Below are positions 5,859-13,191 of a stretch of 64,000 nucleotides of DNA, one piece after another. Source of the stretch: an uncultured Eubacteriales bacterium (GTDB lineage: Bacteria; Acidobacteriota; Aminicenantia; Aminicenantales; Aminicenantaceae); NCBI GenBank assembly GCA_964580235.1, contig CAZOJY010000003.1:934-64933 (forward strand), given 5' to 3'. How positions within the stretch are numbered: the first letter of the stretch is position 1; each line of letters starts with the position of its first letter. Made by a program: the position numbers and the translations under genes. Under the pieces are notes generated by a model. The model searched no databases. It saw only the letters and a program-made list of their open reading frames with translations, and was not told the origin of the DNA.

Positions 5859-5884
5859 TGCTGTTTCCTCCCAAAATATATTAA

Positions 5885-5910
5885 CCTGGATAATTCATAA
5901 ATTATCCAGG
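5885..5910. promoter_or_regulatory. Perfect 11-bp palindrome (CCTGGATAATT-cata-AATTATCCAGG), candidate operator or 5' UTR hairpin
   Basis: Read directly: arms 5885-5895 and 5900-5910 are exact reverse complements. The site lies 27 nt upstream of the minus-strand AlkD-like start, in a 366-bp AT-rich divergent intergenic region. Confidence 0.35.
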
Positions 5911-6224
5911 CTGCCCTGAATTATTCATGTACGAGTTTAAAATCAAGGGACACGTTACCTGATTTCAATGCTCAAACAATCCTGTAAAAAAAATGTTTGT
6001 GAATAATTACAGGTTAATTTATTACGGTTATGACTTCAAAGGAAAAATAGAACCGTCCCTTTTTTTATTGAAATGTCACACTATTTCGTTTAAAATGTAA
6101 TGTTCTGAATTTCTGAGGTTTTTTGATAAGATAGTCTGCTAATTTTGGCATAATACTATCGATATTTATATTGAATTCATATTGATTCATAAGAAGAATT
6201 ATCACGCAATGGGAGCTGGGAATA

Positions 6225-6905
6225 ATGGAAAAAAAGATGAAACCTTTTATTCAAGTCTATTGTCCTGAATGCCAGGAGATGATCAGTCCGGGAGAATGGA
6301 CGGCCTGTCCTTATTTCGAGGGTGAAAAGCTGAATATTTCAGACACTGAAGATGCGATGAAACAGATCTTTCGGTGCCATGTCCAGTGCGACTGTAAAAT
6401 CGAATATTCCTACTACGATGGCAACAAATTAATCACCAAAGTAGAGGATGCGATCGAAGACCAGGAGAGCTTGCGGCGGATCCTGTCTCTGGTATCGAAA
6501 AAAGCGGGTCCACCAGACAAAGGGGCGGCAAAAAAAGTTCTTCTTGTGGATGACGATAAAGACTTCTTGGAAATGCACTCTATTGTGTTGGAGAATAGAG
6601 GTTATGAGGTTATTACAGCCAGAAGCTCGAAGGAATGCATGGACAGGCTGGAGGGAATAAAGCCTGACATCGTCGTTCTCGATGTTATGATGGAACAATT
6701 TGATGCCGGCTTTAAAGCCAGTGAGAAAATCAAACAGAAATACGAAGATCTTCCGGTCATGCTGTTAACATCCATTGGAGCGCAGACGAGCCTGGACTTT
6801 TCATCCAGTGAGGAAGTGCTGAGAGTCAGCGGGGCAGATGTTCTTCTGGATAAGCCGGTAAGCCCAAAAGTCTTGATCGATGAGATCGAACGGCTGACAA
6901 GCTGA
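6225..6905 (+). CDS. Response regulator receiver protein with Cys-rich (zinc-ribbon-like) N-terminal domain
   Basis: 226 aa. The N-terminal ~100 aa carry CPEC...CP...CHVQCDC. The C-terminal REC domain has KKVLLVDDD, the phospho-acceptor context VVLDVMMEQFDAGF, LLTS and DKP. No DNA-binding output domain. Confidence 0.8.
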   Translation: MEKKMKPFIQVYCPECQEMISPGEWTACPYFEGEKLNISDTEDAMKQIFRCHVQCDCKIEYSYYDGNKLITKVEDAIEDQESLRRILSLVSKKAGPPDKGAAKKVLLVDDDKDFLEMHSIVLENRGYEVITARSSKECMDRLEGIKPDIVVLDVMMEQFDAGFKASEKIKQKYEDLPVMLLTSIGAQTSLDFSSSEEVLRVSGADVLLDKPVSPKVLIDEIERLTS

Positions 6906-6929
6906 TAGGCTGATAATCACCCAAAATCC

Positions 6930-9020
6930 ATGGAATTATTAAGCATTTCGAGGCAGAAGTGCCGGTTGTGCGGCCGTTGTGTACGAGACTGCCCCACCAA
7001 TGCCTTAATGATCGAGCATGGGAAGGTGGCTCGGATCGAGAGCCGCTGTATCCTCTGCGGCTCCTGTTACAAATACTGTCCCCACGGCGCGGTCATGCCT
7101 CAAACCAGTGTGAAAAAGGTTTTAAAAGCTCTGGATTCAGGGGAGAAGATAGTTGCCTGTCTCGATCCGACCTTTCCGGCTGTATTGGATGTGGGAACAC
7201 CCGGTCAGTTGGTGACGGCCCTTAAAAAATTGGGATTTCAAGAAGTCTGGGAATCTGCTCTTGGGGGAGACCTCATCAGCCGGGAATACAGAAAATGGCT
7301 GGGTGACGGCGCTAAAAAATCCTGTATTTCTTCGTTCTGTCCCTCTGTCGTTCTCTATATCGAAAAATTTTCGCCTCAGTTGATCGATCGACTCGTTCCT
7401 GTCGTATCCCCGATGGTTGCAACCGGAATGGCTGTTAAAAAACTCAGGGGAAAGGAAACCAAAGTGGTTTTTATCGGGTCCTGTATTTCCAGGATTCACG
7501 AACGCAACATCTCCTTCCTGGAAGGGAATGTGGATTGTGTACTGACCTATCACGATATCAAAGGCATTCTTGATAAAAAAGGGATAGATCGCGAAAAGCA
7601 AGAGGAATCCGAGTTTGATGGACCTCAACCCGGTTTGGGAAGAGTGCTCAGCATCTCAGGTGGAATGTCCAAATGCATCGGATTTAAGCAGGACCTGATC
7701 AATCTGGATTATGTTGTGGCCGCAGGTCCAAGGAGAGCTATACGGGCTGTTCAACAGCTTCAAAGCGGAGCTTTGCGATCCAAATTTCTCGATGTGCTGT
7801 TCTGTCAGGGATGCATCGATGGGCCTATCGTGGACAAAAAAATCTCTGGGCCCAGTCGGAAGCAGATGGTTGTGAATTTTTTTCTATCCCAGAACGAACA
7901 CATCTGGGACAAAGATAAAAACATTCCTGCCCAGCTGAAACCCATGGAGCTTGGACGAGGTTTCTCTGTTAAAGATGTTTCCTTGGCTGAGCCGAAGGAA
8001 GAAGAAATTCAGGCCGTTTTAAACGAGTTGGGTAAAGCGTACCCGAACCGGAATTTGGATTGTGGAGGATGTGGTTTTAGCACTTGCCGGGAAAAGGCCA
8101 TCGCTGTCGTGCAGGGTTTGGCCGAAAAAGAAATGTGCATGCACTATCTTCTCGCCCGATCACGACGTTTGTATTCCCGTTTGAAAAAATCCCATCAAGA
8201 ACTCAAAATTTCCCTCGAAGAGTTGGAACAGGCCCAGAGGCAGCTTATCCAATCGGAAAAGCTGGCTTCTCTCGGTCAGCTGGCAGCCGGTGTAGCCCAC
8301 GAATTAAACAACCCCCTGGGAACTATTACCCTTTTCAGTAATATGCTAAAAAAAGATCTAGCCCAAAACGAGAAGTGGGAAAAAGACATCAACCTGATCA
8401 TTCAGGAAACAGAAAGAGCGGCTAAAATTGTAAAAGATTTGTTGAGTTTTTCACGGGAAACCAAACTGAAACCCGGACTTGTGAACATCAACAGCCTAAT
8501 CGAAGAGGCCGTTTCACTTCTTGCAAAGCGGTCTATTTTCCGGAATGTTCAGGTGAAACAAATGCTCGGATCCTCTATTCCGTCCACGTTTGCCGATCCT
8601 GATTTGCTCAAGCAGGTTTTTTTCAATATCATCTTGAACGGGGCGCAGGCTATGGAAGGAAGCGGTGTCATGACAGTTAGAAGTCAGCCCAAAAACGGGG
8701 GAAGAAACATCGAAATCCAGATCGAAGATACAGGAAAAGGAATTACAGAAGAACACCTCCCCCGTCTTTTTGATCCCTTTTTTACGACAAAAGAAAAAGG
8801 AACAGGGCTTGGTTTAGCTTTAGTTTATGGGATTGTATCCAAACATAAGGGGACGATCGATGTGGAGAGTCAATTGGGAAAAGGAACGACTTTTTTAATA
8901 AATTTACCGATTTTAGATCAGAAGGAGTGGATGAGGGGAGAAAAAAAACTCGTTGAGATGAAAAAAGTGACAGAAGGAGGGGAAGGTGATTCAGAAGAAG
9001 ACAATCTTATTGGTGGATGA
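6930..9020 (+). CDS. Soluble sensor histidine kinase with 2x[4Fe-4S] ferredoxin, an [FeFe]-hydrogenase-like domain and a CGGCG Fe-S module
   Basis: 696 aa with no TM helix. Two CxxCxxCxxxCP motifs (aa 11-21 and 40-50). Hydrogenase large-subunit-like core with degenerate H-cluster motifs SSFCPSV, GSCISRIHE and FCQGCIDGP. LDCGGCGFSTCREKA Fe-S motif. HisKA H-box GVAHELNNPL and an HATPase_c domain (DTGKGI, GTGLGL). Confidence 0.85.
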   Translation: MELLSISRQKCRLCGRCVRDCPTNALMIEHGKVARIESRCILCGSCYKYCPHGAVMPQTSVKKVLKALDSGEKIVACLDPTFPAVLDVGTPGQLVTALKKLGFQEVWESALGGDLISREYRKWLGDGAKKSCISSFCPSVVLYIEKFSPQLIDRLVPVVSPMVATGMAVKKLRGKETKVVFIGSCISRIHERNISFLEGNVDCVLTYHDIKGILDKKGIDREKQEESEFDGPQPGLGRVLSISGGMSKCIGFKQDLINLDYVVAAGPRRAIRAVQQLQSGALRSKFLDVLFCQGCIDGPIVDKKISGPSRKQMVVNFFLSQNEHIWDKDKNIPAQLKPMELGRGFSVKDVSLAEPKEEEIQAVLNELGKAYPNRNLDCGGCGFSTCREKAIAVVQGLAEKEMCMHYLLARSRRLYSRLKKSHQELKISLEELEQAQRQLIQSEKLASLGQLAAGVAHELNNPLGTITLFSNMLKKDLAQNEKWEKDINLIIQETERAAKIVKDLLSFSRETKLKPGLVNINSLIEEAVSLLAKRSIFRNVQVKQMLGSSIPSTFADPDLLKQVFFNIILNGAQAMEGSGVMTVRSQPKNGGRNIEIQIEDTGKGITEEHLPRLFDPFFTTKEKGTGLGLALVYGIVSKHKGTIDVESQLGKGTTFLINLPILDQKEWMRGEKKLVEMKKVTEGGEGDSEEDNLIGG

Positions 9021-9387
9021 TGATCCGGATTTTCTTGAGATGCACAAGGTTGTGCTGATTAATCACGGCTATGAGGTAACGACAGCCGCCAGCGCTCAAG
9101 AAGGATTGGAGAAAGTGAGAACAGAAATGCCCGACTTGATTGTTCTAGATCTGATGATGGAAAAGTACGATGCTGGGTTTTCCTTTAGCAAGCAGATCAA
9201 AAACGATCCCTTGTTCAAGAAAATCCCGATTTTGATGGTGACAGCCGTTGCCGATGCCACGGGGTACAAGTTTTCTTTGGAAAAGGACGGGTACTGGATG
9301 AAAACGGATGAGTTTCTCGAGAAACCCATCGAGCCGTCGGTTCTCATCAGCAAAATCGAAAAATTACTTGGGAAAAAAGAGGATTAA
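8986..9387 (+). CDS. Single-domain response regulator (receiver only)
   Basis: 133 aa. KKTILLVDDDPDF, IVLDLMMEKYDAGF, MVTA, EKP. Clear paralog of the REC domain at 6225-6905. Its start lies inside the last 35 nt of the kinase gene. Confidence 0.85.
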   Translation: MIQKKTILLVDDDPDFLEMHKVVLINHGYEVTTAASAQEGLEKVRTEMPDLIVLDLMMEKYDAGFSFSKQIKNDPLFKKIPILMVTAVADATGYKFSLEKDGYWMKTDEFLEKPIEPSVLISKIEKLLGKKED

Positions 9388-9388
9388 A

Positions 9389-10891
9389 TTGAACAATAAA
9401 GCGCGCATCCTGGTTGTTGATGATGAAATGGGAATCCGGGAGGGCTGCAAACGGGCCCTATCTGAGGAGGGTTATGCGGTTGATGATGCAGAGGATGGCC
9501 AGGCCGGGCTCCAGAAAGTGCAGGAGAATGGCTACGATCTTATCCTTGTGGATCTGATGATGCCTGGGGTAGGAGGCATGGACCTTATAAAAAAAATTCA
9601 TCATATGAACCCTGAAATCATTATGGTGGTGATCACAGGTTACGCGACGATCGAAACAGCGGTGGAGGCGACAAAACTGGGCGCATATGATTATCTCCCA
9701 AAACCCTTCTCACCTGAGGCACTGGCTGCGGTCGTCAAGCGTGGGCTGGAAAAGAGATTCCTCAGCCTCGAAGCGAAAAAACTTCATGCCGAGAGAGCTC
9801 AGAGGTTGTTGGAACTCGTGAATGAAAGGAGCCGGCTGAGGACCATCATCGGGTGCATGGCTGACGGCGTATTGGTGGCCAATCTGGAAGGGCGGCTGGT
9901 CCTCTGGAATGCCTCCAGCATCAAGATGTTAAAGTCCAGAGGTTTTGATGTTGCCGGAGAGCCTCTCGAATATTACATTGAGAATGAGCCGCTCATTGCC
10001 GCGATCAAAGAGGTCCTGGATTCGGAGGATAAGGGCTTTTCAATGGTGAGCCGTGAGATTTCCGCTCAGGATCAAAAGGTTATTTTGATGGCCAACATAG
10101 CACCTATCAGGGATGAGAACGGCCAAATCCTGGGAGCGGTGACGGTTCTCCGAGACATTACGGCGCTCAAGGAAATTAACAAGATAAAGTCACAATTTGT
10201 CTCGATGGTTGCCCATGAGCTCAGGGCTCCGCTGGCTGCGATCAAAGGGTGGTTGGAGATAATTCTCTCTGGCGAGGCCGGAGGAGATGCGGAGCAGAAT
10301 GAGAAATGGCTCCATCGGGCTATGGATCGTTCTGACTCATTATTGACTCTGGTGAATGATCTTCTTGTGATCAACCGGATGGAATCAGGCAAAATTGTAC
10401 AAAAGATGGAACCAGTAAAAATAAATGATATTATCAACAAAATCGTGGATTTTTTGAGACCGGATGCCAAAAAACACAAGGTGTCTATCAAGACCGAATT
10501 AAAGGAAGAGCTTCCCTCTATTCAGGCTGATGTTGGAGAAATGGAAAAGCTTTTCACCAACTTAATCAGCAATGCGATTAAATATAATAAGGAGAATGGA
10601 TCTGTTACCATACTAGGGAAGGTTAAAGGAAACTTTGTCCAATATGGGGTAAAGGACACAGGAATCGGAATTTCGGCCGAACACCTCTCCCGCATCTTTG
10701 ATGATTTCTACCGGGCTAATGATGAGAGGACAAAAAAGATTCCTGGGACAGGTCTCGGTCTCACGATTGCCAAAAAAATCGTTAATTCCCATTTCGGACG
10801 CATCGAGGCGGAAAGCGAACCAGGCAAAGGAAGCCTCTTTTCTGTGTGCCTTCCCCTTAAGCATCGAAGAGACAATGAGGTAAAAAAATGA
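9389..10891 (+). CDS. Hybrid REC-PAS-histidine kinase
   Basis: ORF 9308-10891. I prefer the TTG at 9389 (LNNKARILVVDDEMG) because it sits 2 nt after the previous stop and follows AAGAGGA. REC domain (LILVDLMMPG), PAS-like middle region, H-box SMVAHELRAPL and HATPase_c (KDTGIGI, GTGLGL). Confidence 0.82.
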   Translation: MNNKARILVVDDEMGIREGCKRALSEEGYAVDDAEDGQAGLQKVQENGYDLILVDLMMPGVGGMDLIKKIHHMNPEIIMVVITGYATIETAVEATKLGAYDYLPKPFSPEALAAVVKRGLEKRFLSLEAKKLHAERAQRLLELVNERSRLRTIIGCMADGVLVANLEGRLVLWNASSIKMLKSRGFDVAGEPLEYYIENEPLIAAIKEVLDSEDKGFSMVSREISAQDQKVILMANIAPIRDENGQILGAVTVLRDITALKEINKIKSQFVSMVAHELRAPLAAIKGWLEIILSGEAGGDAEQNEKWLHRAMDRSDSLLTLVNDLLVINRMESGKIVQKMEPVKINDIINKIVDFLRPDAKKHKVSIKTELKEELPSIQADVGEMEKLFTNLISNAIKYNKENGSVTILGKVKGNFVQYGVKDTGIGISAEHLSRIFDDFYRANDERTKKIPGTGLGLTIAKKIVNSHFGRIEAESEPGKGSLFSVCLPLKHRRDNEVKK

Positions 10892-13191
10892 CTTCCAGCG
10901 CAAAACACAAGCTTAACGCAATTGTTCATAAGGAAAGCATAGCCCCCTCCATCACGCTATTTAAAATTTACACCCCTGTCGTGGCCAATGCCGTGAAAGC
11001 CGGACAGTTTGTCGTTGTGAGAACCGATGATTATGCAGAGAGAGTTCCTCTGACTGTAGCTGATAAAGACCTGAAAGAAGAAACCATCACCCTGATTGTA
11101 CAGATTGTGGGGACAGCCACACGAAAAATGGATTCCCTGAAACAGGGGGATTCTTTTCTTGACGTTGTTGGCCCTTTGGGAAAGGCGACAGAGATCACAA
11201 AAGGGGGAACTGTGGCGTGTATCGGAGGAGGTGTTGGAGTTGCTCCTGTCTATCCGATCACCCGAGCGTTTAAAGAGGCCGGAAATCGTATTATCTCTAT
11301 CGTCGGTGCGCGAACGAAGGAAATGCTTATCCTGGAAGAGGAGATGCGGGCTTTAAGCGATGAGCTTTATATCGCCACAGATGATGGATCGGAGGGGCAT
11401 CATGGCTTCGTGACAGATGTTCTCAAGAAAATTCTAGCAGACGGGACTGAGATTAATGAGGTCGTGGCCATAGGCCCAGGAATCATGATGAAAGCCGTTG
11501 CCGATATTACCAGAGAGCCAGGTATCAAAACCATCGTGAGCCTCAACTCTCTGATGGTGGATGGGACCGGGATGTGCGGGGGATGCCGGATCTCTGTCGG
11601 AGGAGAAAGAAAATTTGTTTGTGTGGATGGGCCTGAATTCGACGGTCATCAGGTCGATTTTAACGAACTCATGCAGCGCTCGGAGATGTATGTCCGGGAA
11701 GAACATCGGGCCATGTGGGATTATGAGTGCCGTTTACAGCAAGCTGCGGATAAGTTAAAAAGGGCAAATAAACGGGAGCCCATGCCCAAGCAGGATCCAA
11801 AAATGAGGATAAAGAATTTTGACGAGGTGGCTTTGGGGTATTCCCGGGAGCAGGCCATGCGGGAAGCCTCCCGCTGCCTCCAGTGCAAAAAGCCCTTTTG
11901 TGTGGAGGGATGCCCTGTGGACATCGACATCCCCGCCTTCATCGCCAAAATAAAAGAAGGGGATTTTATGGGAGCCATTCATAAAATCAAAGAAAAAAAT
12001 AGCCTGCCTGCTGTCTGCGGCCGGGTATGCCCTCAGGAGGAACAGTGCGAAATAAAGTGCATCCTCGGGAAGAAAAAAGATCCTGTTGCCATAGGCCGAT
12101 TGGAGCGGTTTGTTGCGGACTATGAGTTTGACCTGGGTGAAGTGCGAGTCCCGAAGCTGCCGAAATCGACCGGGAAAAAAGTTGCTGTGATCGGAGCTGG
12201 CCCCGCAGGACTGTCCGCTGCGGGAGAGCTGTGCAAAATCGGCCACAAAGTTACAGTTTTTGAAGCTCTTCATGCCCCGGGAGGGGTGCTTGTCTATGGG
12301 ATCCCGGAGTTTCGTCTCCCAAAGAGGATTGTTCAGAGGGAGAGCGATTATATCGGCAAGTTGGGCGCGGACATCAAGGTCAGCTATATCGTAGGCAAGG
12401 CCAAAACCGTGGATCGGCTTCTTCAGAATGGATACGATGCCGTGTTTATCGGAACAGGGGCGGGATTGCCTCATTTTCTGAACATTCCTGGAGAGAATTT
12501 GAACGGCGTTTATTCGGCAAACGAGTTTCTGACCCGGGTGAATCTGATGAAGGCGTATCTCTTTCCGGAATACAATACTCCCATTCGGCTGGGAAAAAAA
12601 ATTGCTGTTATCGGCGGGGGAAACGTAGCTATGGATTCAGCGCGGACTTCGCTTCGCCTGGGCGCTGAGAAAGTCTACTTGGTTTACCGGAGATCCCGCG
12701 AGGAAATGCCGGCGCGGGATGAGGAAATCGAGAATGCTTTTGAAGAAGGGATTGAGCCCCGTCTGTTGACAAATCCAATCCGGATTCTCGGAAATGAAAA
12801 AGGGTGGGTGAAGGGATTGGAATGTGTTCAGATGGAATTGACAGAGCCGGATGATTCCGGCCGGAGGCGTCCCGTTGCGATCGAGGGCACGGAATTTGTC
12901 ATCGATGCGGATATGGTGGTCGTGGCCATCGGTCAGGGTCCAAATCCGTTGTTGACCTCGACAACACCCGACTTGAAACTGACCAGGTGGGGCAACATCG
13001 TTGCCGATGAAGACACAGGGAGAACATCTAAAAAAGGTGTGTTTGCCGGCGGTGATATCGTCACAGGGGCGGCTACGGTGATCCTCGCAATGGGGGCGGG
13101 CAAGAAGGCGGCCCGATCCATCGATCAGTACCTGAAAGACGGCAAGTGGGGGGGGTGCTTAGATCCTCAATGTCGCTCAAGACATGCCTGA
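10888..13191 (+). CDS. Fused NfnA-NfnB-type NAD(P)H/ferredoxin oxidoreductase (DHOD-B electron-transfer-subunit-like domain plus GltD-like domain)
   Basis: 767 aa. The N-half is an FAD/NAD-binding ferredoxin-reductase fold with GGGVGVAP and a C-terminal CGGCR...C [2Fe-2S] motif. The C-half has the GltD/NfnB motifs RCLQCKKPFCVEGCPV, CGRVCPQEEQCE and VAVIGAGPAGLSAA. ATGA overlap with the upstream kinase gene (10888-10891). Confidence 0.85.
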   Translation: MTSSAKHKLNAIVHKESIAPSITLFKIYTPVVANAVKAGQFVVVRTDDYAERVPLTVADKDLKEETITLIVQIVGTATRKMDSLKQGDSFLDVVGPLGKATEITKGGTVACIGGGVGVAPVYPITRAFKEAGNRIISIVGARTKEMLILEEEMRALSDELYIATDDGSEGHHGFVTDVLKKILADGTEINEVVAIGPGIMMKAVADITREPGIKTIVSLNSLMVDGTGMCGGCRISVGGERKFVCVDGPEFDGHQVDFNELMQRSEMYVREEHRAMWDYECRLQQAADKLKRANKREPMPKQDPKMRIKNFDEVALGYSREQAMREASRCLQCKKPFCVEGCPVDIDIPAFIAKIKEGDFMGAIHKIKEKNSLPAVCGRVCPQEEQCEIKCILGKKKDPVAIGRLERFVADYEFDLGEVRVPKLPKSTGKKVAVIGAGPAGLSAAGELCKIGHKVTVFEALHAPGGVLVYGIPEFRLPKRIVQRESDYIGKLGADIKVSYIVGKAKTVDRLLQNGYDAVFIGTGAGLPHFLNIPGENLNGVYSANEFLTRVNLMKAYLFPEYNTPIRLGKKIAVIGGGNVAMDSARTSLRLGAEKVYLVYRRSREEMPARDEEIENAFEEGIEPRLLTNPIRILGNEKGWVKGLECVQMELTEPDDSGRRRPVAIEGTEFVIDADMVVVAIGQGPNPLLTSTTPDLKLTRWGNIVADEDTGRTSKKGVFAGGDIVTGAATVILAMGAGKKAARSIDQYLKDGKWGGCLDPQCRSRHA

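Follow-up and report, generated by a model that had tools for sequence, protein, structure and literature searches.

The window analysed here is a 64,000-nucleotide (nt) stretch of contig CAZOJY010000003.1 (GenBank assembly GCA_964580235.1) from an uncultured bacterium of the family Aminicenantaceae. It carries a cassette of five genes encoding, in this order, a receiver (REC) protein with a cysteine-rich N-domain (REC1), a histidine kinase with a hydrogenase-like iron–sulphur (Fe-S) sensor (HK1), a second stand-alone receiver (REC2), a second histidine kinase (HK2), and an NfnAB transhydrogenase fused into a single protein (Nfn). The cassette represents a previously undescribed branch of a signalling module found in the hydrogenase operons of other bacteria; literature searches turned up no account of a HydS-type kinase cascade with a link to Nfn, or of a HydABC-linked kinase/REC/REC-PAS-kinase module. 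On balance, the comparison of sequences and gene neighbourhoods slightly favours the view that the five genes would constitute a redox-sensing kinase cascade that originated in hydrogenase operons, operates without H2 chemistry, has been re-dedicated to Nfn, and ends in stand-alone receivers acting by protein contact.

A full-length HK1 orthologue was found in 13 of 61 relatives from the same order, and all ten relatives with enough contig keep the order and orientation of the five genes. A species-wide scan retrieved 29 Aminicenantes loci, 21 with all five open reading frames (ORFs) and eight cut by contig ends, with no exceptions; the complete loci span several families and all keep the gene order. 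Flanking genes are common only within a genus and differ between genera, and clustering of the flanking ORFs of 22 loci revealed neither a sixth co-travelling gene nor a DNA-binding regulator, a glutamate dehydrogenase gene in five loci aside. A search among the 61 relatives confined single-ORF NfnAB to cassette-bearing genomes. Judged by this synteny, the five genes are one conserved unit and the linkage to Nfn is not accidental, since the arrangement holds in every complete locus and the fused Nfn occurs only together with the cassette. The kinase–nfn linkage noted in the original prediction is present in every related locus with room for it (10/10 and 21/21). The alternative that the signalling genes and nfn are mere neighbours without a functional link is extremely improbable: order and orientation persist across several families while the flanks vary, the HK2 and nfn genes overlap in an ATGA, no relative has the fused Nfn without the cassette, and a sister lineage, represented by the loci L117 and L132, retains the same link.

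Re-derivation of the ORFs and Pfam searches bore out the five genes, their domains, and their junctions as first described (Table 1). REC1 and HK1 are separated by 24 nt, HK1 and REC2 overlap by 35 nt, and a single nucleotide lies between REC2 and HK2. The start codon of HK2 at 9389 is TTG, not ATG; a longer in-frame ORF beginning at 9308 was considered and rejected, as the orthologues give it no support. All five proteins, HK1 included, are predicted to be soluble. Both kinases retain the H, N, G1, F, and G2 boxes and the three receivers retain the DD, D, T/S, and K phospho-acceptor set; by residue content, the two kinases and three receivers are competent for phosphotransfer. Pfam detected no helix-turn-helix (HTH) domain in any of the five proteins, in agreement with the earlier claim that the three receiver-containing proteins have no such output, and no match to a histidine phosphotransfer (HPt) family at E <= 0.01. 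Multi-step phosphorelay, as originally proposed, is too loose a name: because an HPt domain is absent, the arrangement is that of a two-kinase, three-receiver cascade rather than a canonical phosphorelay.

Table 1. Coordinates of the five-gene cassette, its predicted domains, and the region upstream of it (positions in the window).
Feature	Position	Strand	Description	Evidence
Presumed promoter/leader	5859-6224	+	AT-rich gap of 366 nt that follows a divergently oriented gene	
REC1	6225-6905	+	Cys4(+His) N-domain (6225-6518) and receiver (6537-6887)	Pfam, orthologue alignment
HK1	6930-9020	+	HydS-type Fe-S sensor histidine kinase	Pfam
HK1 F-domain	6942-7094		2x[4Fe-4S]	
HK1 H-domain	7149-7826			
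HK1 C-terminal cluster domain	8055-8141		Cx2Cx4Cx16C	
HK1 HisKA	8271-8459			
HK1 HATPase_c	8595-8912			
REC2	8986-9387	+	Receiver alone, GTG start	Pfam REC, 73 bits
HK2	9389-10891	+	REC (9407-9736), PAS (9833-10171), HisKA (10187-10390), HATPase_c (10538-10861)	Pfam
Fused NfnAB	10888-13191	+	NfnA (10912-11709) and NfnB (11767-13152) in one ORF	

The sensor half of HK1 is of the sensory-hydrogenase type, as the original prediction of a hydrogenase-like kinase had it. Pfam recognises two Fer4 domains, Fe_hyd_lg_C (PF02906, 143 bits, residues 74–299), an FeS domain (PF04060), HisKA, and HATPase_c, and an alignment of 11 orthologues reveals 16 invariant cysteines in four cluster-binding groups. 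Two groups are N-terminal ferredoxin-type cubane ligands (Cys 11/14/17/21 and 40/43/46/50). The third (C137, C185, C292, and C295) occupies the ligand positions of the H-cluster cubane, the bridging cysteine included, in an alignment with the structure of HydA1 (PDB 8a6t, E 2e-25), and is invariant in nine distant family members as well. The fourth is a C-terminal Cx2Cx4Cx16C group (Cys 378/381/386/403). HK1 thus shares with the putative sensory [FeFe]-hydrogenases of group D (M2e, TamHydS) and group C (M2f, TmHydS) a 2x[4Fe-4S] F-domain, a four-cysteine H-domain, and a C-terminal Cx2Cx4Cx16C domain, the last being a [4Fe-4S] domain that unifies the two groups (PMC13104023). Its D377-C378...C403 matches D378-C379...C404 of TamHydS, in which C379 and C404 bind the C-terminal cluster (PMC13104023). 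As in HydS proteins, the proton-relay cysteine (C299) is gone, being replaced by Phe, and M353 and M497 are replaced, here by Gly and Leu (PMC8163306). Unlike in HydS proteins, the CN-binding K358 is Arg in the Aminicenantes kinases, and HK1 departs from the group C and D proteins in having Ser at the P354 position and an L3 motif spaced CxxC rather than CxxxC. In HK1, the sensor is fused directly to HisKA-HATPase_c, with HisKA following the C-terminal cluster, whereas TmHydS carries a PAS domain and TamHydS is devoid of signalling domains; the PAS domain of the cassette resides in HK2.

The means of completing an H-cluster appear to be absent. In a sample that includes four closed chromosomes, HydG (TIGR03955) was over cut-off in none of 16 Aminicenantes genomes and HydF (TIGR03918) in none of 11, with positive control genomes in both cases; HydE was not searched. 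The genome of the window (G000) encodes no PF02906 protein besides HK1, and this search found no catalytic [FeFe]-hydrogenase there. Since HydG and HydF are absent, the 2Fe subsite could not be made by the known route, and a complete H-cluster, hence H2 sensing, is unlikely in HK1; in all probability, its H-domain binds nothing but cubanes and responds to redox state. In these respects, too, HK1 is set apart from the group C and D sensory hydrogenases: its genomes have no HydG or HydF, its 2Fe subsite is probably lacking, and it has Nfn beside it instead of a group A hydrogenase. Of the two signals first suggested to be sensed through the Fe-S clusters, H2 or cellular redox state, the second is the better reading.

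That HK1 is nevertheless a genuine H2 sensor, its H-cluster completed by an unrecognised route or acquired otherwise, is very unlikely. The invariance of the four cubane cysteines, the bridging one included, and an architecture equal to that of characterised HydS proteins would fit such a sensor, and HydABC-linked family members with adjacent maturases likewise have Arg in place of K358. The counts for HydG and HydF and the lack of a catalytic hydrogenase in G000 speak against it, and we know of no maturase-independent in vivo route to the 2Fe subsite. The idea that loss of K358 (to Arg or His) tracks linkage to Nfn as opposed to hydrogenase was tried and rejected, as P0153 and P0173 have Arg within HydABC operons, P0173 with HydE/G-like genes adjoining; P0123 retains Lys at this position yet adjoins a split Nfn.

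A second ORF with Fe_hyd_lg_C, of about 425–570 aa and without kinase fusion, is present in eight of ten other cassette genomes; G000 has none. Examples are G002:C1:1518618-1519316, G004:C3:213632-214330, and G037:C1:1488795-1489493, and HydG and HydF are absent from these genomes too. In G002 and G004, this ORF lies 3–4 kb from another histidine kinase.

The origin of the module was traced by a sequence search over 1.8 billion representatives, which found the same sensor-kinase fusion in dozens of 50%-identity clusters at 31–47% identity. Genomic contexts were sampled for 12 distant clusters. In seven of them (L119, L121, L123, L124, L127, L128, and L130), a series of kinase, REC, (REC), and REC-(PAS)-kinase stands directly 3' of a bifurcating HydABC hydrogenase. 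Two adjoin Nfn: L117 has the same fused Nfn downstream and a NuoEF/FdhA/split-Nfn cluster upstream of the module, and L120 has a split NfnAB. In two others (L125 and L126), the HydA-like kinase is paired with an adjacent NtrC-type REC/sigma-54/HTH_8 regulator, and one has a SpoIIE phosphatase. A metagenome scan added 80 further loci, 59 of them scored as kinase fusions; among the 43 fused-kinase loci with at least 2 kb of upstream room, a catalytic-type HydA was found within 8 kb in 28, an NtrC-type gene in three, Nfn in one, and none of these in 13. In the metagenomes, Nfn was seen only at the two loci closest to Aminicenantes (L132 and L133, 43–44% identity).

On the phylogenetic tree, the fused-Nfn clade, consisting of Aminicenantes and P0121, is monophyletic with support of 100/100 and lies within a well-supported group in which most of the other members sampled are linked to HydABC; the split-Nfn-linked P0123 falls elsewhere. 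Among the sampled sequences, the tree shows the Nfn-linked clade as a derived offshoot, with the ancestry of the module lying in HydABC-linked versions. The fused Nfn of L117 is 69% identical to that of the window over its full length, and the fusion is therefore older than that split. The module of HydABC operons resembles the cassette in its orthologous kinase (34–41% identity), the same REC-(PAS)-kinase, the lack of a DNA-binding partner, stand-alone receivers with D-x-M-M-E..D(S/A)GF and a W(I/M)K.D insertion, and translational coupling to an electron-bifurcating enzyme. It differs in that its partner is HydABC, maturases are often nearby, the module lies downstream rather than upstream of the enzyme genes, and a Cys4-REC protein is lacking.

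The two stand-alone receivers are the candidate end points of the cascade. In REC1, Pfam recognises only the receiver; the preceding stretch of about 100 residues has no Pfam match and no sequence match outside its own family, and a Foldseek search for PDB folds with its AlphaFold2 model (mean predicted local distance difference test score 72.7) gave no match, the best E being 0.36. Across orthologues, C13, C28, C51, H52, and C55 are invariant, as are D109/D110/D153/T182/K210 of the receiver. The 'CPEC' pair emphasised earlier is not conserved, as C16 is Leu in most orthologues. All 181 homologues of REC1 are Cys4+REC proteins of 208–232 aa, and the homologue search restricted the Cys4 N-domain to the Aminicenantes family. 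A DNA-binding role for this domain appears unlikely because it is acidic, with a median pI of 5.0.

The motif D-x-M-M-E-(Q/K)-x-D-(A/S)-G-F is real and conserved in both REC1 and REC2. In REC2, the DD/D/T/K set, its DLMMEKxDAGF version of the motif, and a 'DGYWMKTD' insertion are all conserved, and HydABC-linked modules carry the same receiver type after the kinase. The motif together with a Trp-containing insertion before beta-5 marks the stand-alone receivers in all versions of the module, unlike the receiver of HK2 and those of NtrC-type partners, which have the usual MPGMDG motif (DLMMPG, likewise canonical, in HK2). The unusual MME..DAGF sequence pointed out in the original prediction is thus conserved as claimed; it is not specific to this locus and marks stand-alone receivers in the hydrogenase operons of other phyla. 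Orthologues of HK2 occupy the same position in all cassette loci and in most of the distant modules.

No DNA-binding output is encoded in or beside the cassette in any genus, which upholds the earlier view of the system. The 366-nt gap upstream of REC1 contains sigma-70-like hexamers at 6068-6096 and 6145-6172; no motif, operator, or sigma-54 (-24/-12) promoter upstream of REC1 is conserved across genera, and the region has no Rfam match and no riboswitch. In G000, 60 ORFs contain a receiver, and every DNA-binding regulator but one has a kinase next door. The exception is an orphan NtrC-type regulator (C82:6347-7888, minus strand) with REC, sigma-54 AAA+, and Fis-type HTH domains and without a kinase nearby. 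It was considered as the hidden output and rejected, since its orthologues, at 67–94% identity, occur in about 57 of the 61 genomes of the order, compared with 13 of 61 for the cassette. The case for a dedicated but unlinked DNA-binding partner is weakened, because the distribution of this orphan does not follow that of the cassette. With regard to a cognate DNA-binding regulator elsewhere, then, none co-travels and the lone orphan is mismatched in distribution; members of the kinase family can, on the other hand, pair with NtrC-type proteins.

Two lineage-specific features were seen upstream of REC1 in other loci, and both are absent from the window. In L044, L045, L049, L050, L053, L055, and L063, a TATACT -10-like box precedes a leader of about 110 nt, and in L041-L043, L057, and L058, a hairpin (aatcgcctcgag..gcgatt) lies about 90 nt before the start codon.

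A transcriptional output remains quite unlikely. Here an unlinked DNA-binding regulator, for example an NtrC-type sigma-54 activator, would control the cassette's own operon including nfn, and the stand-alone receivers would serve as phosphate sinks or connectors. The kinases of L125 and L126 with their adjoining REC/sigma-54/HTH_8 regulators would fit it, as would the NtrC-type genes near three of the 43 metagenomic fused kinases and the transmitter of HK1, which scores best against AtoS/ZraS-type kinases; placing a regulator and its target gene within one operon is also a common design. It has to be set against the 22 loci in which no DNA-binding regulator co-travels, the adjacent kinases of all DNA-binding regulators in G000 except one, the distribution of that one orphan, the lack of a conserved operator or -24/-12 promoter upstream, and the fact that the cassette already supplies three receivers for its two kinases.

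The last gene of the cassette is, by both of its domain sets, an NfnAB transhydrogenase. Its NfnA half has the [2Fe-2S] DHODB-type and FAD/NAD-binding domains (DHODB_Fe-S_bind, PF10418; NAD_binding_1, PF00175), and its NfnB half the 2x[4Fe-4S] domain Fer4_20 (PF14691, 154 bits) and the FAD/NADPH domain Pyr_redox_2 (PF07992, 128 bits); the whole protein scores 1106 bits on NCBIfam NF009414, the cut-off being 1103. Compared with NfnAB of Thermotoga maritima, residues 294-755 match 4ylf_B with 633 bits and residues 9-274 match 4ylf_A with 257 bits. With the full domain and cofactor-binding sets of NfnA and NfnB, it is like the T. maritima enzyme (4YLF) and the single-gene fusions of PRK12778, and unlike them it stands within a two-component cascade to which its translation is coupled, the fused form in this order occurring only with the cascade. 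Of the five genes, that for Nfn is conserved best (74–91% identity among orthologues), and it is a single ORF in all cassette loci save a frameshifted copy in the genome G045; with that exception, the in-frame stops flagged in cassette Nfn copies are terminal codons.

Two genomes, G016 and G007, which seemed to have a 'fused' Nfn without the cassette, were rejected as such, since they contain ordinary split nfnA and nfnB genes whose stop codons the search had read through. The notion that the fused enzyme is a spare copy accompanying a housekeeping split NfnAB was also revised: the other NfnA/B-like pair of G000 belongs to a NuoF/FdhA-like cluster, which leaves the fused gene as the sole stand-alone Nfn of this genome. 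That cluster, composed of (NuoE), NuoF, an FdhA-like molybdopterin protein, and NfnA-like and NfnB-like proteins, is located on contig C80 of G000 (L036:4187-11016, minus strand) and at L117:682-7557. It resembles a Bfu/Stn-type complex with Nfn-like subunits, and in L117 it lies directly upstream of the kinase cassette.

The following mechanism may be proposed for the redox-sensing cascade. HK1 would be a descendant of 'sensory' HydS-type [FeFe]-hydrogenases of group C/D architecture, welded to a histidine-kinase transmitter. In Aminicenantes, it would hold Fe-S cubanes only, up to four of them, and would therefore report electron pressure, in the form of reduced ferredoxin and/or electrons passed on by Nfn, rather than H2. 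The redox state of the Fe-S chain would set its autophosphorylation, and the phosphoryl group would pass to REC2, encoded by the gene that overlaps that of HK1, and/or to the receiver of HK2, a second-tier REC-PAS kinase that could integrate a further signal. REC2 and REC1, the latter with its added Cys4 metal-binding domain, would be the end points and, given that they have no DNA-binding domain, may act by protein–protein contact. The functional partner would be the co-translated fused NfnAB, since no other gene accompanies the module without exception in this clade, a place that HydABC takes in the sister clades. We infer from sequence the redox signal, the phosphotransfer route, and the role of Nfn as target or partner of the receivers.

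Several points weigh against this reading. The AtoS/ZraS-like transmitter places a transcriptional output within the repertoire of the family, and the kinases of L125 and L126 are indeed paired with NtrC-type regulators. The genome is about 90% complete, and an output partner could be missing from it. Replacement of K358 by Arg is not diagnostic, as it also occurs in HydABC-linked members with maturases next door. Finally, the C-terminal cluster of TamHydS is unresponsive to H2 (PMC13104023).

A more specific version, in which the cascade acts directly on Nfn or is fed directly by it, is tentative and rather doubtful. HK1 and Nfn would form an electron-exchanging pair that reads the NADPH/NADH/ferredoxin poise, and the phosphorylated stand-alone receivers, one of them bearing the new Cys4 metal domain, would bind and gate Nfn. 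In an alternative that is itself unlikely, Nfn would be the input only: NfnAB would have the ferredoxin-like N-terminal clusters of HK1 for its low-potential acceptor, the kinase would read the same poise, and the receivers would act on other protein targets. The 2x[4Fe-4S] domain of HK1 is the counterpart of the F-clusters connecting HydA with external ferredoxin, a sensor without maturases requires an outside source of electrons, and the ATGA coupling implies a similar, low expression that is unusual for a bulk metabolic enzyme. The strict co-occurrence of Nfn with the cassette would also fit, and an enzyme as kinase input has a known precedent in the complex between a regulatory [NiFe]-hydrogenase and the kinase HoxJ (mentioned in PMC8163306). 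However, free ferredoxin could reduce the sensor without Nfn, the high conservation of Nfn and its closeness to T. maritima NfnAB are as expected of a working enzyme, and in HydABC-linked relatives the sensor presumably contains an H-cluster of its own and does not depend on a donor enzyme.

Among described systems, HydDB [FeFe] group C1, the 'histidine kinase-linked' putative sensory hydrogenases (for example in Vallitalea guaymasensis and Cloacimonadota metagenome-assembled genomes), likewise associates a hydrogenase-like sensor with a histidine kinase. The neighbours of C1 are redox-balancing enzymes, namely Rnf in Vallitalea and subunits of a bifurcating hydrogenase in Tenebribacter (PMC6163223, PMC8542988). 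In the described C1 cases, hydrogenase and kinase are encoded by separate adjacent genes (PMC6163223, PMC8542988), while here they form one polypeptide, and a second kinase, three receivers, and Nfn are present in addition. A functional parallel is offered by another family. In HoxBC-HoxJ-HoxA of Cupriavidus necator, a hydrogenase-type sensor coupled to a histidine kinase reports reductant supply. The cassette is like this system in principle, with a metal or Fe-S sensor and a histidine kinase serving an energy enzyme; the Hox system differs in its unrelated metal centre and protein family, and in that HoxJ signals to the DNA-binding NtrC-type regulator HoxA, a type of protein not found here.

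According to recent work on TamHydS (2026), the signal pathway of putative sensory [FeFe]-hydrogenases is unresolved (PMC13104023). The fusion of sensor and kinase makes the output of a sensory hydrogenase, as autophosphorylation and transfer to three receivers, directly measurable. The Aminicenantes version constitutes a natural control, a sensor scaffold without the means to make an H-cluster, re-attached to Nfn in place of hydrogenase, and such a scaffold can reveal what the Fe-S sensor detects alone. It may also reveal how electron-bifurcating enzymes of anaerobes are regulated without a change in transcription. Direct coupling, if true, would amount to post-translational control of bifurcation by phosphotransfer and would extend to HydABC-linked modules in many phyla. 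Aminicenantes are abundant in anoxic sediments and peat, which makes their balancing of NADH, NADPH, and ferredoxin relevant to carbon turnover there.

Some individual loci deserve separate mention. In one genus, two genomes carry disrupted-looking cassettes, L031 (G037:C1:1047759-1063723) and L032 (G045:C14:7832-23915): the kinase has five in-frame stops in G037 and is split in G045, where Nfn is also frameshifted. This could reflect either decay of the cassette or an assembly error. Among the HydABC-linked modules, L127:2906-8980 has two HydS-type kinases (676 and 659 aa) that flank REC and REC-kinase in one HydABC-like operon, and in L119:8544-10190, the kinase module is succeeded by a trio of DRTGG, PHP, and GHKL-ATPase, located between two sets of HydABC. 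In L128:2170-2790, a Rex-like gene (Put_DNA-bind_N + CoA_binding) lies directly upstream of HydABC and the kinase module and could be a transcriptional arm in this lineage.

The glutamate dehydrogenase gene lies a few kb from the cassette in five loci belonging to different genera (L041:3686-5038, L042:3452-4804, L056:4203-5555, L057:3806-5164, and L058:14576-15862), and it is also found 3' of a HydABC-linked module (L128:13242-14528). This neighbour might point to a connection with amino-acid fermentation or NADPH supply.

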